IMG/VR virus record: IMGVR_UViG_2563366977_000006
DNA length: 13,375 nucleotides
Reading direction: 5' to 3' (one strand)
DNA from: a virus
Taxonomy: Duplodnaviria; Heunggongvirae; Uroviricota; Caudoviricetes
The translations under genes were made by a program, and so were the position numbers. The notes under the pieces were generated by a model. It was not told the DNA's origin, made no database searches, and was given only the letters and a program-made list of their open reading frames with translations. Below are positions 2,489 to 13,375 of the stretch, piece by piece (position 1 is the stretch's first letter; the number at the start of each line of letters is the position of its first letter).

Positions 2489-3337
2489 ATGAAATTTCCA
2501 AAAACGCCCGTACAGGGGCAGGGCTTCGTTCGGCCTGAAAACCAGAATCTGCAAAATTTTGGCGAAATTATCCCGGTTATTTCCGGCGTTATTGGCGGGC
2601 GTGAAACCAATATTGTTAGCGCCAGAGCGTTGCATAAGGCGCTCGGGGTAGGCCGTGATTTCACTACCTGGATTAAAGGACGTATTGATGAGTACGGATT
2701 TAAAAATGGCGTGGATTTTGAAATTGTAGAAAATTTGTACTTTGATTCCCCGAAACGGGGGAACCAAAGTGTAAATATTGAACAGTTTGATTCTGATTGG
2801 ACAACAAAGCGCGGCGGTGATCGCCGCAGTGAAGACTATTTGATCTCCACGAACATGGCGAAAGAACTGGCGATGGTCGAACGCACCGAACAAGGCCGCG
2901 CCGTTCGCCAGTATTTCATCAAATGCGAGGAGGAGCTACACAAGGTGGCGCCAGTGCGTTCCGCAGCGTTACGCCGGGAACTGAAAGCCCGTATCACCGT
3001 TGCCAGCTACTTTAAGCCGATGTGCGCTGCGCTGGAGGCGTACCGGGCTGAACTGGGTAAAAACACGTTCCAGCACCACTACACCACGGAAGCCAATATG
3101 CTGGCGCGTATCGTGCTGGGTGGCATGACTGCAAAACAGTGGGCACTGGCGAACGGCATCACAGGCGAACCACGCGACCACATGAGCGTGTTGCAGCTTG
3201 AGCACCTTTCTTACCTTGAGCAGAGCAATATCACGCTGATTGAGTTAGGCCAGGACTACCACCAGCGAAAAGCTGAATTAATTCGTCTTTCGCAGCGTTG
3301 GTTAGCCCGTCGCATGGAGGAAAACAGCCATGTGTAA
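2489..3337 (+). CDS. phage antirepressor-like protein (AntA/AntB-type N-terminal domain), 282 aa
   Basis: ATG at 2489 with AGGAG 5 nt upstream. N-terminal motif SARALHKALGVGRDFTTWIKGRIDEYGF resembles the antirepressor-type pattern (..R.LH..L.V...F..W...RI..Y.F). C-terminal half is helical and of unknown family. Assignment is by memory of the motif, not a search. Confidence 0.6.
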   Translation: MKFPKTPVQGQGFVRPENQNLQNFGEIIPVISGVIGGRETNIVSARALHKALGVGRDFTTWIKGRIDEYGFKNGVDFEIVENLYFDSPKRGNQSVNIEQFDSDWTTKRGGDRRSEDYLISTNMAKELAMVERTEQGRAVRQYFIKCEEELHKVAPVRSAALRRELKARITVASYFKPMCAALEAYRAELGKNTFQHHYTTEANMLARIVLGGMTAKQWALANGITGEPRDHMSVLQLEHLSYLEQSNITLIELGQDYHQRKAELIRLSQRWLARRMEENSHV

Positions 3338-4009
3338 CGCTCTGACCGTTACAAAAAGAGAAAGCGCCCCGTTGCCGGAGCGCCTTTGTGAACGAATAGC
3401 CTACTGCGCCATATTGCTTACTGTCTACGAGGCAGATTATAGCGTTGTGGTTGCACAGAGTGAAGGCGTTGATCACCGTTACCACAGCACACCAGAAATG
3501 CAGAATATTTTGCTGCAAAATGTCGTTGGTCACGCTGTCCGGAAAGCAAAAAATTTTGCTGGTGGCGCGACTGATGCGATTTTGTCAGGTCGCCAGGTGC
3601 TGATCAATCTGATGTCTGATTTCGTTCTGGATAAAACAAAGGCGACCGCAGAGGGCCACCAGTGGGAAAGCTACACACTTGAACACATCGCCAACAATGC
3701 CAGATTTGCGGTTGGTGGGCAATGTGATCAGTGTGCTGGCTTGCTGGTGGGCTATTCCTGCTCTTTAACATTGCCATGCCGCGATGTTTTCCAGGTATGC
3801 GACCCCATTTTTGTGCGCCTGTACTCTTTAAGGAATTTCTCAAGGATAAACGCACAGGGCGCGAATCTGTCTGACCCATGCTCGTACGCTATCTTTCTGC
3901 GCTGTCTTTTCCGTGCCGGTGATGGTGTATTGGTTGATTCTTTGTTGGTCATGGCGCTGCCCTGTAAAACGATGCACCGTAGTTCCTTACACCACGGCGC
4001 TGGTGATGG
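3330..4009 (+). CDS. possible translationally coupled gene with unresolved 3' end (possible decayed gene); frame stays open to 4886
   Basis: ATG at 3330 overlaps the upstream stop (cATGTGTAA) and has GGAGG 9 nt upstream, which argues for a real start. The first ~130 codons look protein-like, but later the translation becomes Cys/Ser/Arg-rich and the frame has no stop until 4886, running antisense through the repressor gene and its operators. The end coordinate is arbitrary. Confidence 0.25.
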
Positions 4010-4312
4010 TTACTCCTGTTCTTTGGCCTTGCGGCGCTGGAGTTCTTCACGTGCGACGGTGACGAGCTGCCCGATCTCCTCGACAGCTTTGACTCCGATT
4101 TTTTCCACCTGCGCCAGTGCATTGAGCGAAGAAACCAGGGGATTTTCTCCGCTTCCTTCTGCCTGGCGGCGGGCGATCTCACCACGCATGGCGGTTACTA
4201 TGAATCCGGCGTTGCTTTCGCCGTCCAGTTTTACGGATTCCATACCCTCCATAACATCGTGGGGAACCCTGATCGTTGTCATTTGCGATTTTGCATTTTT
4301 GTATACAGACAT
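4010..4312 (-). CDS. ribbon-helix-helix (Arc/CopG-like) DNA-binding regulator, 100 aa; candidate immunity/maintenance repressor
   Basis: Minus-strand ORF; start ATG at 4312 with GGTGA about 6 nt upstream. N-terminus TTIRVPHDVMEGMESVKLDGESNAGFIVTAMRGEIARRQ fits a beta-strand plus two-helix RHH pattern, followed by a helical/coiled C-terminus. It is divergent from the rightward operon. Confidence 0.7.
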   Translation of the reverse strand: MSVYKNAKSQMTTIRVPHDVMEGMESVKLDGESNAGFIVTAMRGEIARRQAEGSGENPLVSSLNALAQVEKIGVKAVEEIGQLVTVAREELQRRKAKEQE

Positions 4313-4332
4313 AGTTAATCACCAATTAGTTA

Positions 4333-4433
4333 TGTGTATATCACTATACACAAAAGTGAGATATAAAAACACTTGCAATGTATATCACCACAATATAATG
4401 TATATCTCACATTGTGATGGCTATGTATCTCAC
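4333..4433. promoter_or_regulatory. operator-like repeats in the divergent control region (4 copies of ATGTAT(A)TC(T)CAC plus palindromes)
   Basis: Read directly: TGTGTATAtcacTATACACA palindrome 4333-4352; ATGTATATCAC 4378-4388; ATGTATATCTCAC 4398-4410; TCACAtTGTGA palindrome 4406-4416; ATGTATCTCAC 4423-4433. All lie between the RHH gene start (4312) and the first rightward gene (4521). Confidence 0.55.
4373..4399 (+). promoter_or_regulatory. candidate sigma70 promoter for the rightward operon (-35 TTGCAA 4373-4378, 15-nt spacer, -10 TATAAT 4394-4399)
   Basis: Hexamers read by eye. The operator-like repeats overlap the spacer and the -10 element, as expected for a repressible promoter. The spacer is on the short side and there is no experimental support. 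Confidence 0.4.
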
Positions 4434-4520
4434 AATGATCGATTCATAAAAACGACGAAACCCGGCAGTGCGCTAACACTAACCGGGCTTCTAACCAAAC
4501 CGTTAAATGAGGTAACGATT

Positions 4521-4886
4521 ATGGCTGGGGCACAGCATACCCAAACTCACCCTAAATTTATATACACCTTCCTGGCGGTGCACCGTAATTGCATAGCTGA
4601 CGGTAAAAACACTGTTCATGTAGCCGCCGATACGCTGGTTGATGCCTGCGAGATGCTCAATGACATGGGCTATATCTCGGCAACATGGAAAGGGCGCGAA
4701 GAAAACACGCTGTTTATTCAGAAATGCGAAAACAATTTTATCTGGCGTTTTATCGCCCTGAGCACAGCACAACCGCGTGTAATTCACATCGAGGCCACCA
4801 GCGAACAGGAAGCACGCCAGCAATCTCCTGATGGCTGCGTGATGGTATTCGCCGCCCGTATTCGCCAGGAGGTGGAACATGTGTAA
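4521..4886 (+). CDS. hypothetical protein, 121 aa (first gene of rightward operon)
   Basis: ATG at 4521 with TGAGGT ending 8 nt upstream; in-frame part of the long ORF-track ORF 3330..4886. Stop overlaps the next start (ATGTGTAA). Confidence 0.65.
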   Translation: MAGAQHTQTHPKFIYTFLAVHRNCIADGKNTVHVAADTLVDACEMLNDMGYISATWKGREENTLFIQKCENNFIWRFIALSTAQPRVIHIEATSEQEARQQSPDGCVMVFAARIRQEVEHV

Positions 4887-5103
4887 TGCAACATGGCCTG
4901 ATGCAGCGGTAGACGCTATCAAAACGCTGGTGGATTCACTTATTGAGATTTCTGCTATCTCTGGTGTGGCGCATAAACACGCAGCCAGAGAATCAGAATG
5001 CATCTTCCATTATTTAGCATTTGTGCAGCTAAAAGCCGATCAGGCACTGGATAAGGCCGGAAAAATTATCATGGCTGATGTGCAGGAGGTGCACCATGCA
5101 TAA
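4879..5103 (+). CDS. hypothetical small acidic protein, 74 aa
   Basis: ATG 4879 with AGGAGG 7 nt upstream; start overlaps the upstream stop. C-terminus ...DVQEVHHA and the junction CCATGCATAA to the next gene are repeated at 5675-5687. Confidence 0.6.
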   Translation: MCNATWPDAAVDAIKTLVDSLIEISAISGVAHKHAARESECIFHYLAFVQLKADQALDKAGKIIMADVQEVHHA

Positions 5104-5461
5104 CCTGTCAATTTCTGACCTTAACAGCATTCAGTTTGACGAGAAATTTACCGGGCAGCTACTGGTCAATGTGGAGAATGGACGCGTGGTAAGTAATTAT
5201 CACCTGCCGGATGGTGCAATTGCCGGAAGCGTTGAAGCATTGCTGGAGCTGGCAGAACGTGCGCGACTGATTAAGCCGTTAACGTGCCATCACGATGATA
5301 ATCTGCATTTTACCGGACGCATGGTGAGTCACTACGAAAACGGCGTTGAAGTATCCTGCGAACGTCTGCGTGATGATTGCTGTTTCGGCACATTGCCGGA
5401 ATTTATCGAATTGCTGACCAGTTGCGGTTATCAGGTCATTCAGGGGGGTAAACATGCGTGA
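5096..5461 (+). CDS. hypothetical protein, 121 aa, containing two tandem copies of an FTG-x-LV...G-x-V-S motif domain
   Basis: ATG 5096 (MHNLSIS) with AGGAGG 7 nt upstream; overlaps the upstream stop. Internal repeat: KFTGQLLVNVENGRVVSNY and HFTGRMVSHYENGVEVSCE ... PEFIELL. Confidence 0.65.
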   Translation: MHNLSISDLNSIQFDEKFTGQLLVNVENGRVVSNYHLPDGAIAGSVEALLELAERARLIKPLTCHHDDNLHFTGRMVSHYENGVEVSCERLRDDCCFGTLPEFIELLTSCGYQVIQGGKHA

Positions 5462-5687
5462 TGATCGTTTTAATTCCCTGAAACAGGAGTTTGATGGCGC
5501 ACCGGAAGATACATCGGGCGCATTGTTGAACGTTGCTGACATGATGAAAGCTGCATATTTTCTTATCAATACCAATGGCTACAAGTCAGAGGGTGAAATG
5601 ATTCTTAGTATTGCGTCGGACTATGCGGAATATGTGGCAGAGGTGCGTTACAGAAGAAAATTCACGGAGGATGTAAGCCATGCATAA
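5454..5687 (+). CDS. hypothetical small acidic protein, 77 aa
   Basis: ATG 5454 with GGGGGG 6 nt upstream; start overlaps the upstream stop (ATGCGTGA). Ends ...EDVSHA, paralleling the end of the 4879 gene. Confidence 0.6.
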   Translation: MRDDRFNSLKQEFDGAPEDTSGALLNVADMMKAAYFLINTNGYKSEGEMILSIASDYAEYVAEVRYRRKFTEDVSHA

Positions 5688-5880
5688 TCATGAAGCGCAT
5701 GTACCCGTAGTGCTTAATGTGCCAGATGATTTCACCGGACGCGTACTGGTTTACCTGGATAAAGGGAAAGTGAAATCACAACGCCGACTGAAAAGTAATG
5801 AAATTGTGGGTTCTCCTGAGTTTTTTTCTGAACTCTGTATTCGTGCAGAAATAAAACCGGAACTGCTGACAGGAAAATAA
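5680..5880 (+). CDS. hypothetical protein, 66 aa, single copy of the FTG-motif domain (paralog of 5096..5461)
   Basis: ATG 5680 (MHNHEAH) with GGAGG 9 nt upstream; 8-nt overlap ATGCATAA with the upstream gene. DFTGRVLVYLDKGKVKSQRRL ... GSPEFFSELCIRAEIKP aligns with both repeats of the 5096 protein. Confidence 0.6.
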   Translation: MHNHEAHVPVVLNVPDDFTGRVLVYLDKGKVKSQRRLKSNEIVGSPEFFSELCIRAEIKPELLTGK

Positions 5881-5884
5881 AACC

Positions 5885-6175
5885 ATGAAAAAGAAAAATT
5901 CTGGCTTTACTGCCAGCGGTCTCTCTCGGCCTGAAATCAGACACGGAGATATTTACCGCGACACCATACGTGGGGGACGAGCGGTTATTTGTCACGTTAC
6001 GCCAGGAAATATCACCTACCGCCGTGAGGCTTATGAATATGACTGCATAATGCCGCGCCGTCAGTTTGAGCGTGATTTTATTCTGGTGGAGAACAAACAA
6101 CAGGAAGCGACGAGACGTGCAGCCATGAATATTAAAAAAATCCGGGCAATGTTGGTTGCGGGAGGTAAGAAGTGA
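5885..6175 (+). CDS. hypothetical basic protein, 96 aa
   Basis: ATG 5885 with AGGA about 10 nt upstream. Its stop overlaps the GTG start of the primase gene (GTGA). Confidence 0.55.
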   Translation: MKKKNSGFTASGLSRPEIRHGDIYRDTIRGGRAVICHVTPGNITYRREAYEYDCIMPRRQFERDFILVENKQQEATRRAAMNIKKIRAMLVAGGKK

Positions 6176-7977
6176 AAAACGCACCGAGTCTAAAATATCA
6201 GCCGAAGGATAAATTCACTGAGGTAATCATTTTTGCCGGGACGGATGCTTACGCCCATGCTCAACACTGGATTGAAAGTGAAGGACGAAAACACGGCGAT
6301 AACGTGCCTCCTGTTTACCTGGGGCCAAAGCAACTGGCAGACCTGGCGAATATCCGCATTATTGATGAGAAACGCCGTTTTGCGCGTGTCTATATCGCGG
6401 GGGAGATAGAGCCAATCCAGATCAATACTATCGCTGAAAAGCTGGCGCTGGCTGGCGTACAGGAGGCGAAATTATACAAAGGTATCACCGACCAGGAACC
6501 GGAGAACTGGCGCGACTACCTGCAACGGATCCGCGAACAGGCTGAGCACGGGGAAGTTTCAGTGATGAAATTAGCTACAAAAAATAGTGGTCTACCCAAG
6601 CCTGCATTAAATCAGATGGGAGCCAGCCAGAGAGGAGAAGTGTTACTTGAACATTATGGAGGAGCACTGGCGATAAATGATGATTCTGATGTAGTTCACC
6701 ATTACAACGGAATTGTTTGGGAGCCTGTATCTGATAAGGAACTCCAGCGGTCTATGGCGAAGATTTTTATTGATGCCGAAATTAGTTATTCGCAAAACGC
6801 CATTAAATTTGCCGTAGAGACAATGAAATTGAGTCTACCTGTTATGGGGGGAGCGGACAGAAATCTTATTGGGTTCAGTAACGGTGTTTTTGATATCAGG
6901 ACAGGAAATTTTCGGGAACACAACAAAAATGACTGGTTGTTAAATGCCAGTGAATTACCGTTCAGCCCGCCAGAAGAGGGGGAAACGCTGGCAACACATG
7001 CGCCGAATTTCTGGAAGTGGTTGCGTCGTTCGGTGGCGGATAATGCTCGTAAAGCGGATCGCGTACTGGCGGCATTATTCATGGTACTGGCGAACCGGTA
7101 CGACTGGCAGTTATTCCTTGAGGTAACGGGGCCGGGCGGAAGCGGTAAAAGTGTGATGGCGGAGATTTGTACCATGCTGGCGGGTAAGGCCAATACAGTA
7201 TCGGCGAGCATGAAGGCGCTGGAAGACGCGAGGGAACGAGCGTTAGTGGTGGGATATTCTCTGATTATCATGCCTGACATGACCCGCTACGCAGGTGATG
7301 GTGCTGGGATTAAGGCCATTACAGGCGGTGACAAGGTGGCTATCGATCCGAAACACAAAGCGCCCTATTCCACGCGCGTTCCTGCGGTAGTGCTGGCAGT
7401 AAACAATAATGCCATGTCATTCAGCGACCGTAGTGGGGGGATCTCGCGTCGACGAGTGATATTTAATTTCTCTGAGGTTGTACCAGAGAACGAACGCGAT
7501 CCGATGCTGGCGAAAAAGATAGAAGGGGAACTGGCCGTAGTGATTCGCCATTTGCTTACACGATTTGCCGACCAGGACGAAGCGAAAAGACTACTTTATG
7601 AGCAGCAAAAATCAGAAGAAGCACTGTTAATAAAGCGTGAAGGTGATTCGCTGGTGGACTTCTGCGGTTATCTGATGTCGTTGGTTAAATGTGAGGGGAT
7701 GATAGTAGGTAATGCAGAAATAGTGCCATTTAGCCCGAGGCGATATCTGTATCATGCTTATTTGGCTTATATGTCTGCGCATGGTCTGGGAAAACCGGTA
7801 TCACTGACACGCTTTGGTACAGATATGCCAGGGGCAATGGCTGAGTACGGAAAGGAGTACAAGCGGGCTAAATGCACTAAAGGTCCAGATAAAGGGCGAA
7901 CGATCACAAATGTTCTGTTAGATAAAGATGCTGATGGATGGTTACCAGCAGCGGCAGGCATTAACGACAGAACATGA
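6172..7977 (+). CDS. P4 alpha-like / PICI pri-rep-like replication protein (primase C-terminal region plus SF3-type P-loop helicase), 601 aa
   Basis: GTG 6172 with GGAGG 6 nt upstream. Walker A motif VTGPGGSGKSV, followed by a hydrophobic-acidic stretch LVVGYSLIIMPDM (Walker B-like). Size and position immediately upstream of an iteron origin match satellite/phage-plasmid primase-helicases. Family call is by motif and context only. Confidence 0.8.
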   Translation: MKNAPSLKYQPKDKFTEVIIFAGTDAYAHAQHWIESEGRKHGDNVPPVYLGPKQLADLANIRIIDEKRRFARVYIAGEIEPIQINTIAEKLALAGVQEAKLYKGITDQEPENWRDYLQRIREQAEHGEVSVMKLATKNSGLPKPALNQMGASQRGEVLLEHYGGALAINDDSDVVHHYNGIVWEPVSDKELQRSMAKIFIDAEISYSQNAIKFAVETMKLSLPVMGGADRNLIGFSNGVFDIRTGNFREHNKNDWLLNASELPFSPPEEGETLATHAPNFWKWLRRSVADNARKADRVLAALFMVLANRYDWQLFLEVTGPGGSGKSVMAEICTMLAGKANTVSASMKALEDARERALVVGYSLIIMPDMTRYAGDGAGIKAITGGDKVAIDPKHKAPYSTRVPAVVLAVNNNAMSFSDRSGGISRRRVIFNFSEVVPENERDPMLAKKIEGELAVVIRHLLTRFADQDEAKRLLYEQQKSEEALLIKREGDSLVDFCGYLMSLVKCEGMIVGNAEIVPFSPRRYLYHAYLAYMSAHGLGKPVSLTRFGTDMPGAMAEYGKEYKRAKCTKGPDKGRTITNVLLDKDADGWLPAAAGINDRT

Positions 7978-8011
7978 TACGAAATTTATAAGTTGAAACT
8001 TAAAAGTAGAC

Positions 8012-8340
8012 GGTTGGTAGACAGATACACTTAACCCTCTACCAACCATCTACTAATTAATATTTTGAATTATATAGGTATTTTTAATGTGGTAGAGAGG
8101 TGGACATTTTATTTTATATTTCTAAACCACGGGGGTATCTAAAAATAGATAGTTATGGGTTCATTTTTAAAATTTTTCTTTTAACTATCTACACTGTCTA
8201 CCATTTAGTAAAAATCATTAATTATCAATGTATTAATACGGTAGAGAGTTGGTAGACAGTTTGCAGATTGTTTTTTGTTATGTGTGAACAACATTAAATA
8301 AATCAATCAATTATATCGATAGACAGTTGGTAGACAGTTG
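8012..8340. repeat. putative iteron-type origin of replication: about 7 copies of GGTAGA(C/G)AG in both orientations within an AT-rich region
   Basis: Read directly: GGTTGGTAGACAG 8012-8024; inverted CTCTACCAACC 8037-8047; GGTAGAGAGG 8091-8100; inverted CTGTCTACC 8194-8202; GGTAGAGAGTTGGTAGACAG 8240-8259; ATAGACAGTTGGTAGACAGTTG 8319-8340. Inverted repeat TAGATAGTT (8146-8154) / AACTATCTA (8182-8190) flanks a very AT-rich stretch that could act as an unwinding element. Confidence 0.6.
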
Positions 8341-8345
8341 TAACG

Positions 8346-8888
8346 ATGGGGCAAAGCATGACTAAGCTGACCATTAACAGAAAACCAAAAGGCATTTACG
8401 GCACGCCGCAGAAAACGACGCAGGCGGCGCAAGAGCAGGATAAAACCACATCGGCGCATAAAGTGATGCCCGGTAACCAGAAAGCGCAGCAGAAGCCCAT
8501 AGGGGCGACACCGTGGCGGCATATGACCAAGCGCCAGCGCAAAAACCTCAGGCGCATTAACCGCCTCACTGAGTTGTGGCCTGAATTATTCAGCCGGGAA
8601 GCACCGAAGCCGCTTAAGGTGGGGATATTCGACGACCTGATGCAGGATCTCGCCGTCAGGGGGCTGGCATTCGGGCCAGGGGCATTGCGTGCGACGCTGG
8701 CATCTTATGCGCAGTGTCCGCGCTATTACCGCGCCTTAATGGCTGGTGGGGTACGCTACGACCTGAAATGCCAGCCGTGCGGCGAGGTGACACCACAGGA
8801 ACAACAGGACGCAGAAACGCGGCTGGTTGCGCTGAATGAGAAACGCAAACGTCAGCGTCGGGCAGCAAAGGAGAAAACAGGCGCATGA
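8346..8888 (+). CDS. FinO/ProQ-domain RNA-binding protein with basic N-terminal extension, 180 aa
   Basis: The segment LTELWPELFSREAPKPLKVGIFDDLMQDLA...LRATLASYAQCPRYYRALMAGGVRYDLKCQPCGEVTPQEQQDAETRL parallels the ProQ N-terminal FinO domain (LAERFPHCF...RPLKIGIFQDL...LRSALRLYTSSWRYL...RVDLDGNPCGEL). A second in-frame ATG at 8358 is an alternative start. Confidence 0.75.
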   Translation: MGQSMTKLTINRKPKGIYGTPQKTTQAAQEQDKTTSAHKVMPGNQKAQQKPIGATPWRHMTKRQRKNLRRINRLTELWPELFSREAPKPLKVGIFDDLMQDLAVRGLAFGPGALRATLASYAQCPRYYRALMAGGVRYDLKCQPCGEVTPQEQQDAETRLVALNEKRKRQRRAAKEKTGA

Positions 8889-9172
8889 TTCACGACAGCA
8901 AAGCGGAAGCTCTGGAAGCGCGTGGTCTGTACCGGAGAGCGGCGGCGCGGTGGGCTGAGGTCATCATGCTGGCGAATGATGACAAGGCACGGGAACAGGC
9001 GGCAAAACGTCGCGCGGAATGTATCCACAAGGCAGCACGCCCACCAGCAAGGCAGGATAATTTCGGGGAGATGCGCAAAACCATCAGCCGGGCACATGCC
9101 GGGATGGGATTACATCAGCCCAATGGTGAGGCATTCAGGAAATACCAAAAAAAGAACAATTGTAGTCATTAA
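8885..9172 (+). CDS. PerC-like transcriptional regulator, 95 aa
   Basis: ATG 8885 overlaps the upstream stop (ATGA), with AAGGAG 11 nt upstream. N-terminus MIHDSKAEALEARGLYRRAAARWAEVIM resembles PerC-family proteins as I remember them; not verified by search. Confidence 0.55.
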   Translation: MIHDSKAEALEARGLYRRAAARWAEVIMLANDDKAREQAAKRRAECIHKAARPPARQDNFGEMRKTISRAHAGMGLHQPNGEAFRKYQKKNNCSH

Positions 9173-9306: not shown

Positions 9307-10449
9307 ATGAATAAAACTTTAATTGCAACATTAGTCGGTATAGTAATGTTAACCGGATGTGGGCCAGAAGAGTTAACTCCAGAACAGAAACAGGAAGTAG
9401 CGGCTCTTAAAGCTGAACTGTCGCAAACGGAAGGTGAAATATCAGCAGCTAAGGAAGTTGACCAGCAGTTTTCTGGTGGGTTGATAAAAAATCTGACAAC
9501 AGCAAGACTGGAAATATTAGGAACTAATAAAGCGCTTTTGGAACAGCGTATTAATGCTATTGAATCAGGCGCCAAAATTGATGTTGTTGTATCTGGAGTA
9601 AAACCTGATCCTGAGCTTGCGGCTTCAATTAAAACTGAAATTGACAGCTTAGATGCAAAAATCAACGAAGCCAAAGCTGATGCTCGTCAGTATAGTGGTG
9701 GTCTGATAAAGGTACTAAAATTATCTACTGTTGCCACTGAAGAGCAGACCATGGCAATGTTGCAGCAAAAGTACCTCACAGCCAAGTATGGCCTCGCTGA
9801 AGTTAAGCTGGCATCAGTACAAGATAATGACGCAAAAAACAGTACTGAAACGGAAGTAACAGCCAAAAATTCCCAAGAGCAACTTCCTTTACTCCCGCCA
9901 GCGGATGGTCCGTTTGGCTTAGAAGCCGGTCTTACACAGAAAAACATCGAAGATATGATCGGTGCTAAGCTCAAGCCACTACCAGACAGTGTGAATCTGT
10001 ATACTTCTGATAAATTACCGAAGCAAAACGCAGATTTTGAAATGTATGGTTTGTTGATCTCCCCGAAAGCTGGTTTATGTCAAATACGGGCTTTAGGAAA
10101 AAATATTGATACTGATAGCTATGGATTGGCTCTTAAATCCAAGTTTGAAGAATTGAGTAATTCTTTAAGTTCTCTGTATGGAAAGGCTGATACTACAGAC
10201 TTTTTGCTGGCTGGTTCAATTTGGAAAGATCCTCAGGACTGGATGAGGGGGCTAAACAAAAAAGAACGCTTCTTATCTGCCACATGGAAGGGAACAAAAG
10301 AAATACCATTAAAAAACAATATTGATACTATCTCTATTGAGGCCAGAGCGAACAATTCCACTCAGGGATATGTCTATCTGCAGTACTCATTTACAAATGA
10401 CGAAATTTGTCAGGCAGAAATTGAAGGGGCGAAAAAAAGTTCCCTTTAA
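9307..10449 (+). CDS. lipoprotein (380 aa) with internal tandem repeat and C-terminal globular domain; function unknown
   Basis: Signal peptide with lipobox MNKTLIATLVGIVMLTGC (Cys18, Gly at +2). Two repeat units each carrying ...AK-x-D-x-Q-(F/Y)-SGGLIK-x-L... (SGGLIK at nt 9472-9489 and 9694-9711). AT-rich compared with the replication genes. Confidence 0.8.
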   Translation: MNKTLIATLVGIVMLTGCGPEELTPEQKQEVAALKAELSQTEGEISAAKEVDQQFSGGLIKNLTTARLEILGTNKALLEQRINAIESGAKIDVVVSGVKPDPELAASIKTEIDSLDAKINEAKADARQYSGGLIKVLKLSTVATEEQTMAMLQQKYLTAKYGLAEVKLASVQDNDAKNSTETEVTAKNSQEQLPLLPPADGPFGLEAGLTQKNIEDMIGAKLKPLPDSVNLYTSDKLPKQNADFEMYGLLISPKAGLCQIRALGKNIDTDSYGLALKSKFEELSNSLSSLYGKADTTDFLLAGSIWKDPQDWMRGLNKKERFLSATWKGTKEIPLKNNIDTISIEARANNSTQGYVYLQYSFTNDEICQAEIEGAKKSSL

Positions 10450-10461
10450 ACAATCCGTGCA

Positions 10462-10488
10462 AAGCCCCTTAGTAAGGGGCTTTTATAT
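10462..10488 (+). terminator. intrinsic terminator after the lipoprotein gene
   Basis: Perfect 9-bp stem AAGCCCCTT (10462-10470) / AAGGGGCTT (10474-10482) with 3-nt loop, followed by a T-run (TTTTAT), 13 nt after the stop codon. Confidence 0.7.
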
Positions 10489-10513
10489 ATTAATGTTCAA
10501 CGGGGGGGATTAG

Positions 10514-10837
10514 ATGAAAGATAATCTAGAAAAACTAATTGAAAATACTTTAAAAGATATTCTATTAGCTAATGCTGCTCTAACATTCATTTTTGCAATA
10601 CCAATGGCTATTATCAGTAGGCATGGGATGGGCATCACAATCTGGTTTATAACTGTGCTCATTGCACCTGCTCTGTGTGCAGTAGGTGCATGGCTTGTAT
10701 CTCGAACATTCGGCCATGCTGAGGAGTTCTTTCATCGTCGGTGGGCTAAGCGAATTTATGTTTTTTATACTCTTGCGGCTGCCGAGTTTTTGCTTGTGTA
10801 CTCAATCGCGCAAATAATGAAAAATCTGATGAAATAA
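10514..10837 (+). CDS. small integral membrane protein, 107 aa (2-3 predicted TM helices)
   Basis: ATG 10514 with G-rich SD upstream. Hydrophobic stretches AALTFIFAIPMAII, ITIWFITVLIAPALCAVGAWLV and YVFYTLAAAEFLLVYSIAQIM. AT-rich. Confidence 0.6.
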   Translation: MKDNLEKLIENTLKDILLANAALTFIFAIPMAIISRHGMGITIWFITVLIAPALCAVGAWLVSRTFGHAEEFFHRRWAKRIYVFYTLAAAEFLLVYSIAQIMKNLMK

Positions 10838-11119: not shown

Positions 11120-11283
11120 AAAATCACGGAGTAAAGCCAGTTTTACTTTCCCGGGGGCAAATCGAAGCCCTGCAACGTATCCAGGCCGAAAGGCGTCAGA
11201 AATCTGTGCTTGGTGTGGCACCGTCGATTCATGTTATTGCCCGGCAACTGATGGATAAGGCACTTAAAGAGGTGAGGCTGTGA
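11116..11283 (+). CDS. hypothetical small protein, 55 aa
   Basis: ATG 11116 with AGGGA 6 nt upstream; in-frame within ORF-track ORF 10960..11283, whose N-terminal part is Cys/Tyr/Asn-rich and implausible. Stop overlaps the GTG start of the next ORF. Confidence 0.5.
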   Translation: MKNHGVKPVLLSRGQIEALQRIQAERRQKSVLGVAPSIHVIARQLMDKALKEVRL

Positions 11284-11552
11284 AATTAAATATCAGAGTG
11301 GATAAACGCCAGCTATGGCAGAAAAAAGAGAACAGCGAGGCATTCAGGGCTTTGCTGGTGGAAAATCTTCGGCACCGGTTCAGTGGAGAGTTGCCTGATG
11401 CACTGGGGAAGAAACTGGAATCCCTGACGGTGGAAATTGGCGATTATGGCTTTGTTGATGTTGAAAGCACGACTGCCAACACAGAAATCGTAAAGCAGGT
11501 CGTCAATGATGTAATGAAAACCACGCTTAGCCAGCCATCCTGGCGCAACTGA
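11280..11552 (+). CDS. hypothetical protein, 90 aa
   Basis: GTG start overlapping the upstream stop (GTGA); followed by a hairpin terminator. Confidence 0.5.
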   Translation: MKLNIRVDKRQLWQKKENSEAFRALLVENLRHRFSGELPDALGKKLESLTVEIGDYGFVDVESTTANTEIVKQVVNDVMKTTLSQPSWRN

Positions 11553-11558
11553 ATCAGT

Positions 11559-11583
11559 AAGGGGCGGTTATTGCCCCTTTCCT
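11559..11583 (+). terminator. probable intrinsic terminator
   Basis: 7-bp stem AAGGGGC (11559-11565) / GCCCCTT (11573-11579) with 7-nt loop, followed by a short T/C-rich tract. The T-run is weak. Confidence 0.45.
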
Positions 11584-11651
11584 CCATACCCACAACGCAT
11601 TCCCTTTTCGCATGAAATTATTTTTTATCGTATATGCATGAGGTGAGCTAC

Positions 11652-12176
11652 ATGTTGATGAGTAAAGCCGAATACGCCAAATACAAAGGCGTAAGCCGCC
11701 AGACAGTTTACGACTGGATCGAGAAAGGCGAAGTGATCATGTCTGGCAAAAAAATTGATGTGGAGGCGACAGAGCAGCGGAACAGCCCACCGGCACAGGG
11801 GAAAGACACCGTTTCTGAAATGTGGCCAGAAAGAACGCTGGAAATGACGTGGGGCGAGTTCTGGAAAGCAGTTAAGGCCAGAGACGGTAAAATCCCTGCG
11901 CCAGTAACGGACGACGACATACAGCAACGTGTGCTGGATGCAGCCGGGGAATTCGGCTGGGAAGTGCAATTTCTTGATGATGGCGGGATTTGGATGGATG
12001 ACGGCGATGCTGAGTTTTATTTCGAGCAATATGATCTCAGGCAGAATGCCGAACTGGTGATTGGTACGCTGCGACGTGAGGTCTGTTATGTGGCTGATGC
12101 TTGTCCTGACGAGCTGGATAACTGGAGCGAAGCCGGACTAAACGCCCTGGCTGCATGGGAAAAAACAGGTCATTAA
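11652..12176 (+). CDS. HTH DNA-binding protein (Nu1/excisionase-like winged-helix N-terminus) with acidic C-terminal domain, about 175 aa
   Basis: ATG 11652 with GAGGTG 6 nt upstream; ORF-track start 11634 and ATG 11658 are alternatives. N-terminus MSKAEYAKYKGVSRQTVYDWIEKGEV has the pattern of small-terminase Nu1-type / excisionase-type HTH. The C-terminus is Asp/Glu-rich. Confidence 0.65.
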   Translation: MLMSKAEYAKYKGVSRQTVYDWIEKGEVIMSGKKIDVEATEQRNSPPAQGKDTVSEMWPERTLEMTWGEFWKAVKARDGKIPAPVTDDDIQQRVLDAAGEFGWEVQFLDDGGIWMDDGDAEFYFEQYDLRQNAELVIGTLRREVCYVADACPDELDNWSEAGLNALAAWEKTGH

Positions 12177-12183
12177 CGGCCGC

Positions 12184-12466
12184 AAAAAGTGTCAAGTTGA
12201 GCAGCTTGCCAGGTTGACACTTTACACTCTGAACACGAAAAAGTGTCAACCTCGCTGTAAGCCCCGCCGTTACTGGCTTTGCGCCATATTTACCACATCA
12301 AAAAGCAGAAAAAATCGCGAAAAGTGTCAAGTTGCCATGCTTAGAAATGCTAAGTTTTGTTAAGGTTTTTCGCGAAAAAGTGTCAAGTGTGTCAACCTGC
12401 GATATTAAGATTTATTAAGGTCTTAAGCCGGAAAGTGTCAACCAGCCCCTAAGATTTCCTAAGGTG
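12184..12466. repeat. interleaved iteron array: 6 direct and 1 inverted copies of AAAGTGTCAA plus 3 copies of TAAG-N-TTT-NN-TAAGGT
   Basis: Read directly. AAAGTGTCAA cores at 12186-12195, 12240-12249, 12321-12330, 12377-12386, 12432-12441; inverted copy at 12214-12223; partial GTGTCAAC at 12390-12397. Second family: TAAGTTTTGTTAAGGT 12351-12366, TAAGATTTATTAAGGT 12406-12421, TAAGATTTCCTAAGGT 12449-12464. Confidence 0.7.
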
Positions 12467-12489
12467 TGATTGAACGTGCTGTAACCTTC

Positions 12490-12518
12490 TTGTCGTAATG
12501 TGGATGAATGACTATAGT
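12490..12518 (+). promoter_or_regulatory. candidate sigma70 promoter for the AT-rich downstream gene (-35 TTGTCG, 17-nt spacer, -10 TATAGT)
   Basis: Hexamers read by eye at 12490-12495 and 12513-12518; about 47 nt upstream of the ATG at 12565. Confidence 0.35.
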
Positions 12519-12564
12519 GCTGGTAACTTTGACCGCAGAATCAGATTACTGAAGGAAGTGTGTG

Positions 12565-13146
12565 ATGAGTTTTTTTAGTCTTTATGGGAAAGAACTATTT
12601 TCTTTTTTTATAGCGATTTTAACATGGATACTGAATAACAGATTTAAAAGCAAGGCAAAGTTATCCTATGGTTATCAGCATGGATTTACTTTTCTTCTCA
12701 ATGAACCCTTACGGAATGCTAATGGTGAGGTAATATCTAATTCACAGTTGGTGTATACACGATCTATTATTCTTGTTAATGAAGGGCGAGAAAGTGCTAC
12801 TAATATATCATTGGTTTTTAACTATAAACCAATGCATATTAATTTTTGGCCTGTCCACCATTTTGAAGAAAATATTGAACAGGATGGTCGCTATATTATC
12901 AAGTTTGAAAACCTTGCACCTAGTGAGTCTATTCAATGTGAAATATTATCAATAAATAGAGAAGTTCCAAGTATTCTATCGATAAGATCTAAAGAGTGTG
13001 TGGCTGAGCCAGTGAATATCGTGATGCAAAAATCGATTAGTAATATTGCCCTACGTTGCTATCAATTATTAATACTTCTTGGAACTGGCACATTAACATA
13101 TTTAATTATCGTTATTCTGCAATGGTTAGTCACTAAAACGGGATAA
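12565..13146 (+). CDS. hypothetical protein, 193 aa, with N- and C-terminal transmembrane helices flanking a ~140-aa central domain; very AT-rich
   Basis: ATG 12565 with GAAGGAAG upstream; the ORF track starts one codon earlier at GTG 12562. N-terminal TM LFSFFIAILTWIL; C-terminal TM LLILLGTGTLTYLIIVILQWLV. Hand count of 12601-12660 gives about 28% G+C. Confidence 0.7.
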   Translation: MSFFSLYGKELFSFFIAILTWILNNRFKSKAKLSYGYQHGFTFLLNEPLRNANGEVISNSQLVYTRSIILVNEGRESATNISLVFNYKPMHINFWPVHHFEENIEQDGRYIIKFENLAPSESIQCEILSINREVPSILSIRSKECVAEPVNIVMQKSISNIALRCYQLLILLGTGTLTYLIIVILQWLVTKTG

Positions 13147-13195
13147 TCCATTGTGTTGAACTTATTAATTGGATATGAGTGCTGATAGGAAACCT

Positions 13196-13375
13196 ATGAC
13201 CATCACCGAAGCCGATATGCTGGAGATGATCCGCAGCATTGCCGGAATCAAACAACCAGCAAGCAAAATTAACAGGTGTTCAGCGCCTGTTTCCGTTGTG
13301 CTGCAACAGGAACGCCACCAGCAGGATGATGTAAGGCCGTATCAGTGGAAGAAACCGGACAGGCCGCGACGGTGA
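13196..13375 (+). CDS. possible small ORF (59 aa) at window edge, unknown function
   Basis: ATG 13196 with AGGA 7 nt upstream; ORF-track version starts at 13169. G+C returns to about 53% (hand count 13201-13260). No motif recognised; could be a chance ORF. Confidence 0.3.
   Translation: MTITEADMLEMIRSIAGIKQPASKINRCSAPVSVVLQQERHQQDDVRPYQWKKPDRPRR

Follow-up and report, generated by a model that had tools for sequence, protein, structure and literature searches.

The gene, its expression signals and its cassette

Near the right end of the 13,375-nt viral sequence IMGVR_UViG_2563366977_000006 (the whole stretch is referred to as the window) lies a gene for a protein with a transmembrane (TM) helix at either end of a β-sandwich. 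Its coding sequence (12565..13146, + strand; 193 aa plus stop) was delimited with the list of open reading frames (ORFs), RefSeq and homologues. The ORF extends from 12562 to 13146, its likely start is the ATG at 12565, which is also the RefSeq start, and the stop codon occupies 13144-13146. A Shine-Dalgarno motif, AAGGA (12552..12556, + strand), was read from the sequence 8 nt upstream of this ATG. The product is 100% identical to RefSeq entry WP_016262940.1, a "hypothetical protein" encoded by a phage-inducible chromosomal island (PICI) of E. coli SCU-104, and the stretch searched (12200-13375) is 100% identical to the SCU-104 island between tRNA-Thr/proA and paoD. Judged by its gene content, the host element is a PICI with the Gram-negative layout, unlike P4: it possesses an integrase, an AlpA-type regulator and a primase/replicase and is devoid of capsid and tail genes.

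The original prediction, which was made from the sequence alone, had singled out this gene for the lowest G+C content in the window, estimated at about 28%. It is indeed the lowest-G+C gene, and the lowest 585-nt sliding window begins at 12591, but the estimate was too low: G+C amounts to 32.3% in the ORF (25% at third codon positions) and to 33.2% in 12490-13146, as compared to a window mean of 45.7%, and the intergenic region 8000-8345 is lower still (28.9%). A promoter of its own had likewise been proposed. A candidate σ70 promoter (12490..12518, + strand) is present, composed of TTGTCG (12490-12495), a 17-nt spacer and TATAGT (12513-12518), and agrees with the consensus at 9/12 positions. 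Both hexamers reside within the mobile cassette that carries the gene and are kept in a 72%-identical copy from Citrobacter, and a -10-like element occurs at a similar distance from the ATG in most other contexts of the family. The site may be functional, although the match does not rise above chance: the scan returned 3 promoter-like sites versus 3.3 in shuffled sequences. As no terminator was detected by scanning either side of the gene, transcripts of the upstream operon may also extend into it.

The gene is part of a mobile single-gene cassette of 728 bp (12468..13195, + strand), which consists of a 97-nt leader, the coding sequence and a 49-nt trailer. In BLAST comparison with the PICI of E. 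coli ECamp52, in which the site is empty, homology stops at 12467 and restarts at 13196, and only 5 bp (AAATC) are found in ECamp52 where the cassette stands. Position 13196 is the A of the ATG of a backbone ORF of 59 aa (13196-13375, + strand), which is annotated in SCU-104, ECamp52 and E21845/O/A, occurs with or without the cassette and retains 98.9% identity across the empty site. The insertion point is located exactly between the Shine-Dalgarno sequence and the ATG of this ORF. The trailer (13147..13195, + strand), in which no terminator was detected, carries a new Shine-Dalgarno sequence, AGGAAACCT, that substitutes for the original ribosome-binding site, and therefore the downstream translation signals are preserved.

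Among 5,426 complete E. coli genomes, exactly 15 contain the full 728 bp in one piece, with 93-100% identity. A survey of related elements, as the original prediction had recommended, detected the flanking backbone in 169 E. coli genomes and the cassette in 15 of these; hence, the gene does not belong to the backbone. In the remaining backbone genomes, the site is either empty, or homology ends within or after an iteron array upstream of the cassette and other cargo follows, i.e. the content of the slot varies among otherwise collinear elements. One of the 15 copies resides in a PICI with a different integrase, a different integration site (abgR-smrA) and a different type of primase (DUF927), where the cassette fills the same slot as sole 3' cargo gene. 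The spread of the cassette across different PICI backbones suggests that it is exchanged by recombination in the conserved flanks.

Predicted architecture and relatives of the protein

The structure of the protein was predicted by AlphaFold2 from an alignment of 90 sequences with very high confidence (pLDDT 96.8; pTM 0.81), and a model based on 12 sequences was concordant (pLDDT 80). An N-terminal hydrophobic helix (TM1, residues 2-26; 12568..12642, + strand) is followed by a K/R-rich stretch, a nine-stranded Ig-like/CBM2-like β-sandwich (residues 33-141; 12661..12987, + strand), a short linker and a C-terminal TM helix (TM2, residues 160-192; 13042..13140, + strand), for which AlphaFold2, Kyte-Doolittle hydropathy and conservation agree. 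This is in line with the predicted TM helix at each end, whereas the proposed central domain of ~140 aa had to be corrected to ~130 aa. TM2 is strongly hydrophobic (Kyte-Doolittle 2.16; Eisenberg <H> 0.77-0.84). TM1 starts with a conserved Y-x-K-E motif and has the properties of a hydrophobic rather than an amphipathic helix (Kyte-Doolittle 1.40; Eisenberg <H> 0.66; hydrophobic moment 0.30).

Averaged over the family, 3.4 K/R residues follow TM1 versus 0.87 in the N-terminal tail, and 2.2 precede TM2 versus 0.44 in the C-terminal tail. This distribution and the lack of cysteine conservation across the family place the sandwich in the cytoplasm, and both termini are predicted by the positive-inside rule to be outside. 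Invariant throughout the family are N72 and P135 in the sandwich and G173 within TM2; G74, N86, P89 and P96 are near-invariant, and H39, R109, E121, R141 and Y179 are frequent. The invariant N, G and P residues, together with the glycine in the membrane, would fit a binding or packing scaffold rather than an enzyme. At the level of the fold, the central domain resembles sandwiches of the CBM2 and CARDB type. However, CBM2, cohesin and CARDB domains are extracellular carbohydrate- or protein-binding modules, whereas the sandwich addressed here is predicted to be cytoplasmic and anchored in the membrane at both ends; sequence identity is restricted to 6-16%, and none of 90 family members is assigned to these families by Pfam.

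The original prediction had recognized no family, and the searches bear this out. The query protein matched nothing in Pfam, NCBIfam, PHROGs or PADLOC, nor did a known non-defence family emerge. A Pfam search with 90 diverse family members yielded a single chance match, CM2; the best hit of a sequence profile search against the PDB was a chitinase sandwich with E = 2.2; a fold search in BFVD returned only uncharacterized phage proteins; and a literature search with the accessions of five family members found no paper mentioning them. Homologues, in turn, are numerous. A word-indexed search detected 13 close relatives, eleven of which are full-length (193-194 aa; Escherichia, Citrobacter, Hafnia, Serratia). 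An exhaustive HMMER search with the alignment of the close relatives retrieved 578 sequences at E <= 1e-3 and 339 at E <= 1e-10, each of them representing a cluster at 50% identity. Nearly all members comprise 185-205 aa, align end to end and share one architecture; named members include those of Enterobacterales, Sphingomonas and Dyella. A second homologue search with a profile of the deep alignment added only three distant members, and a search for related loci with the close-relative alignment retrieved one species-level genome, that of Escherichia ruysiae.

These data also decide whether the gene is real. AT-rich DNA gives rise to spurious ORFs and promoter-like sites, and the promoter scan remained at chance level, as would be expected if the ORF were fortuitous or a decaying pseudogene in AT-rich spacer DNA. 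This explanation is effectively refuted by the 578 HMMER cluster representatives, nearly all of ~190 aa and with one architecture, by ratios of nonsynonymous to synonymous substitution (dN/dS) of 0.07-0.21 among the enterobacterial copies, which indicate purifying selection and were obtained with saturated synonymous sites, and by the quality of the AlphaFold2 model and of the Shine-Dalgarno sequence. The preserved length and architecture of the family and the low dN/dS establish a real gene and exclude a chance ORF.

The closer relatives form two subclades. Members of the "satellite" subclade are 57-72% identical to the query and include the 72%-identical orthologue of a Citrobacter PICI, a relative that is the last gene before fis in an unrelated Hafnia PICI (AAA_25 helicase, Terminase_2 small terminase) and a copy in another element that likewise occupies the fis site. 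The "P2-like" subclade (40-48% identity) comprises gp38 of Yersinia phage vB_YenM_324 (Peduoviridae), encoded after the tail genes near the genome end; a gene between baseplate genes and int in a Pantoea plasmid-prophage; genes at the contig ends of three IMG/VR prophages, after tail-fibre and baseplate genes; a gene between attL (mntS side) and int in an E. coli prophage; and a gene beside int and PDC-S21/DUF4917 in a P2-like remnant. Of the more distant relatives (30-43% identical to the query), one belongs to a satellite-like element that encodes capsid and DnaB, one adjoins an unannotated AAA operon of four genes, and one resides in an integrase-bearing island, with a type III-A retron at a distance of ~3.4 kb and PDC-S06 at ~7 kb. 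No partner gene is conserved across 18 loci, and neighbours are shared only where backbones are shared. As no neighbour is common to independent contexts, the gene appears to work alone. Moreover, in 18/18 loci the gene is poorer in G+C than the DNA around it, by 5-24 points. The description of the gene as solitary and compositionally foreign has thus held up.

This distribution bears on the idea that the protein might serve the life cycle of the mobile element itself, i.e. by interfering with the helper phage, timing lysis or taking a packaging-related role at the membrane. The gene directly follows a gene for a helix-turn-helix (HTH)/TerS-like protein and the iteron array, a probable site of packaging or regulation; it is not separated from the upstream operon by a terminator; and two TM helices are also found in class II holins. 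Nevertheless, we regard such a role as very unlikely: the gene is missing from most sister PICIs, which consequently do not need it. Furthermore, unrelated PICIs possess members of the family as well, P2-like phages encode them away from the lysis cassette, and some chromosomes carry them as lone genes. A protein of 193 aa with a folded cytoplasmic domain and without PHROG matches is also unlike holins. A holin or another lysis protein was also rejected as a candidate on direct grounds, as neither PHROGs nor Pfam provided a match and the homologue in vB_YenM_324, gp38 at the genome end, is separate from the lysis cassette (gp22-25).

Hotspot context and possible function

The original prediction had placed the gene at the variable end of a satellite, which agrees with its position in the 3' accessory region of the PICI and with what this region contains in sister elements. 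In E. coli 55989 and O104:H4 it is occupied by PARIS (AriA, E = 5e-43; AriB, E = 3.6e-22; 6596-8552 of locus L033 in 55989), in ECamp52 by an annotated SieB and in EC5 by two hypothetical proteins. In Citrobacter freundii, the 72%-identical orthologue is directly followed by bSEFIR (E = 1.4e-113; 11238-12674 of locus L007), and in SCU-104 the gene under study is succeeded by genes for a DUF4747 protein and a hypothetical protein, both beyond the window. Hence, the alternative occupants include recognized defence systems, and the presence of PARIS or bSEFIR in sister PICIs confirms the 3' region as a hotspot of defence genes in this lineage of PICIs. He et al. 2024 assign the immune systems of PICIs to the 5' or 3' end and to a third region adjoining pri (PMC11364771); in the account given there, the accessory immune regions are credited to Fillol-Salom et al. 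2022. In view of this work and of the slot contents, the gene sits in a recognized defence hotspot. It resembles the accessory immune regions of Gram-negative PICIs in the PICI core, the variable 3' position and the defence occupants of sisters, but the protein is homologous to none of the systems reported or modelled in PADLOC.

The antiviral hotspots of P2 and P4 (Rousset et al. 2022, PMC9122126) follow the same idea, i.e. a fixed slot in the backbone with rapidly exchanged cargo, much of which is defence, and relatives of the gene are found in Peduoviridae. The relatives in P2-like phages adjoin attP or int at the prophage end; PMC9122126 defines two hotspots for P2 and describes an integrase-adjacent one, between the cI repressor gene and int, only for the K139-like phages of Vibrio.

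How could a protein of this kind act? In the scenario that we favour, the 728-bp cassette would represent a self-contained accessory gene ("moron"), which shuttles between phage satellites and temperate phages and enters variable, attachment-site-proximal cargo slots by recombination. Its product would be an inner-membrane protein: the helices at its two ends would pair as a TM hairpin, leaving the termini outside and fixing the Ig/CBM2-like sandwich to the cytoplasmic face. There, the sandwich might sense or bind a protein made by the phage or respond to a state that the phage induces, and the TM hairpin, with the invariant Gly173 and the conserved Tyr179, could be the effector. Upon activation, the protein would self-associate and compromise the membrane or the proton-motive force, and the resulting membrane damage would halt the infecting, non-helper phage. 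The anti-phage activity as well as the sensing and membrane-action steps are what we infer, and we tentatively assign the protein to the anti-phage determinants of the abortive-infection type that act as single proteins, with the sandwich as sensor and the TM helices as effector. Abortive infection was chosen as the best fit to a protein in which a TM hairpin, containing an invariant glycine, would anchor a binding module in the cytoplasm. In its favour, the relatives are repeatedly found in cargo slots of phages and satellites, some lie beside a type III-A retron and PDC-S06 or beside PDC-S21, and TM proteins of known systems are believed to act as suicide effectors (PMC9122126).

Several observations weigh against this assignment. 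Hotspots carry non-defence morons too. The location stands, but the protein proved neither homologous nor specifically similar in structure to any known protein of defence, abortive infection or exclusion, and the original designation as "defence or abortive-infection effector" remains guilt by location. A search with 5,027 PADLOC models (PADLOC-DB v2.0.0), which include TM effectors and candidate systems, returned no match at E <= 0.1. The fold matches are generic Ig/CBM sandwiches only, TM1 is only marginally hydrophobic, the promoter match is at chance level, and a killing effector and a passive blocker cannot be told apart by sequence.

A passive blocker would correspond to superinfection exclusion without cell death, in which the inner-membrane protein prevents genome entry of incoming phages, e.g. 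by binding the cytoplasmic face of a DNA-translocation transporter or ejected phage proteins, with an effect like that of T4 Imm, P22 SieA or HK97 gp15. The mobile-element and hotspot context is the same as for the abortive-infection mechanism, and, as a small inner-membrane protein whose gene occupies a moron slot close to the attachment site in temperate phages, the candidate is encoded where exclusion genes are classically found. In addition, SieB occupies the neighbouring slot of a sister PICI, and conserved polar residues in or near the TM helices (Y7, K9, E10, G173, Y179) would suit docking to a membrane protein. However, the bulk of the protein is probably cytoplasmic, while many exclusion proteins face the periplasm; PHROGs, Pfam and PADLOC gave no match to an exclusion family; and a satellite that blocks entry of lambdoid DNA could hamper its own helpers. 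We therefore consider exclusion rather improbable. The protein shares with SieB (PF14163), P22 SieA, T4 Imm and HK97 gp15 the small size, the inner-membrane location, the low G+C content of a moron, a putative own promoter and the residence in temperate elements, but its architecture differs and no sequence relationship is apparent by Pfam or PHROGs. A relationship to SieB was rejected specifically, as PF14163 was not detected in the query and 90 members and comparison by hhalign returned a probability of 0.4%.

Some members of the family raise doubts as to any role in immunity. In Serratia entomophila, a copy belonging to the satellite subclade stands solitary between an HPP-family gene and UDG/rpoD, and a distant relative in Sphingomonas is likewise solitary, next to dapB; both are ordinary chromosomal neighbourhoods. 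Such members, with no mobile element or defence gene nearby, would suit a lysogenic-conversion or fitness moron without defence function, which alters the physiology of the host envelope (transport, stress tolerance or interaction with a membrane complex) for the benefit of the host. Sandwiches of the Ig/CBM type are generic binding modules, virulence and fitness genes are likewise found in the cargo slots of phages and satellites, and no defence model matched the protein. On the other hand, the gene is rare and patchy (in addition to the 15 of 5,426 E. coli genomes, 9 carry a homologue of the P2-like subclade), it is AT-rich relative to every host, and it repeatedly adjoins validated or candidate defence genes. 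Rarity, AT-richness and defence neighbours are hallmarks of defence cargo and argue against a broadly useful physiological gene, making this explanation possible but doubtful.

Returning to abortive infection, membrane effectors of such systems include Cap15 of CBASS, which combines two TM helices with a β-barrel, the TM effectors of Pycsar, and RexB. The protein resembles this group in being small and in combining TM helices with an all-β soluble module of ~100-130 aa, and the proposed action, i.e. membrane disruption after sensing of a ligand, would be shared as well. An actual effector of the Cap15 type, with two N-terminal TM helices and a nucleotide-binding β-barrel, was nevertheless rejected: the TM helices are located at opposite ends of the protein, the fold matches are of the Ig/CBM type and PADLOC gave no match. 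Furthermore, a gene for a cyclase (CD-NTase) was not present as neighbour in any context examined.

A cytoplasmic Ig-like domain clamped between two TM helices is an architecture unseen among known defence proteins. That satellites carry cargo in hotspots, some of which possibly acts at the membrane, is already known; new are the unannotated family and its TM/sandwich/TM architecture. The gene might, with the same reservation as for the mechanism, found an unrecognized family of single-protein immunity, which would comprise at least 578 clusters at 50% identity, travel among phage satellites and P2-like phages as a plug-in cassette of 0.7 kb and halt competing phages by an abortive or exclusion mechanism at the membrane. 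If the protein is anti-phage, it represents a compact (193 aa), partner-free immunity family that is overlooked by current defence-finding tools, and a clean example of satellites and temperate phages swapping sub-kilobase defence cassettes at precise junctions, in which even the ribosome-binding site of the next gene is rebuilt. If it is not, it cautions that location in a hotspot alone over-predicts defence. Many orphans of this kind exist in hotspots; the present candidate is well-defined, widespread and readily testable, as the very confident structure and the few invariant residues (N72, G74, P135, G173) open the hypothesis to mutagenesis.

Further features of the island and of related loci

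The remainder of the window contains the core of the PICI and additional cargo. The integrase gene (1-1215; identified by the ORF list, family searches and RefSeq) is followed downstream by the gene for the AlpA-type HTH regulator. Before the primase gene, an antirepressor pseudogene, YlcI and Icd remnants and a DUF4222 gene succeed one another. The AntA/AntB antirepressor (region 2489-4886) is classified by RefSeq as a pseudogene with an internal stop, and a 518-aa ORF in this region (3330-4886) is probably spurious, as it overlaps a YlcI/YnfO gene on the minus strand (4010-4312) and the Icd remnant. The primase (6172-7977) is named "DNA primase family protein" in RefSeq, and its equivalent in the Citrobacter sister PICI has D5_N/DUF5906/Pox_D5 matches on record. 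On the 3' side of the primase gene, an AT-rich intergenic region (8005-8339; 29% G+C) contains ~8 iterons of the type GGTAGAC(A/G)GTT in both orientations, which surround an AT-rich core, and looks like the replication origin of the island.

Genes for ProQ/FinO (8346-8888) and PerC (8885-9172) follow, and then a block (9307-10837) encoding a predicted lipoprotein of 380 aa and a small multi-TM membrane protein of 107 aa, after which come two small ORFs. The block represents a second variable cargo, as it is missing in the PICIs of ECamp52 and E21845/O/A and kept in 55989, EC5 and Citrobacter, and it is located in the mid-island accessory region adjoining pri in the sense of He et al. 2024 (PMC11364771). 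For the lipoprotein/multi-TM pair, family searches and PADLOC yielded no match. The HTH protein (11634-12176) encoded further downstream resembles excisionase or small-terminase (TerS-like) DNA-binding domains at its N-terminus. The label Rpp was considered for this protein and dropped, since it is sequence-similar to no PDB chain, RppC included.

Between this gene and the cassette, the left-flank backbone (12186-12441) contains six exact AAAGTGTCAA iterons, five on the + and one on the - strand, along with three copies of TAAGnTTTnnTAAGGT. In the entire window, 7 iteron matches were counted versus 1.16 expected, and 6 of them cluster in this array, which is kept in the 169 E. coli genomes regardless of the cargo. 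The array may be a packaging site of the cosB or pac type or a binding site for a regulator. The cosN site of lambda (GGGCGGCGACCT) did not occur in the window when up to 2 mismatches were allowed, and an Rfam scan of 11500-13375 at E <= 1 returned no matches.

Beyond the right end of the window, the last cargo before attR (17509-19001 of locus L001) comprises the gene for the DUF4747 protein and that for the hypothetical protein, which has 199 aa; neither matches PADLOC, and they constitute a candidate pair. The four-gene operon that adjoins one of the distant relatives (2798-8120 of locus L010) encodes proteins of 224, 683, 313 (weak AAA_22) and 552 aa, for which Pfam and PADLOC gave no assignment, and it may represent an undescribed system.

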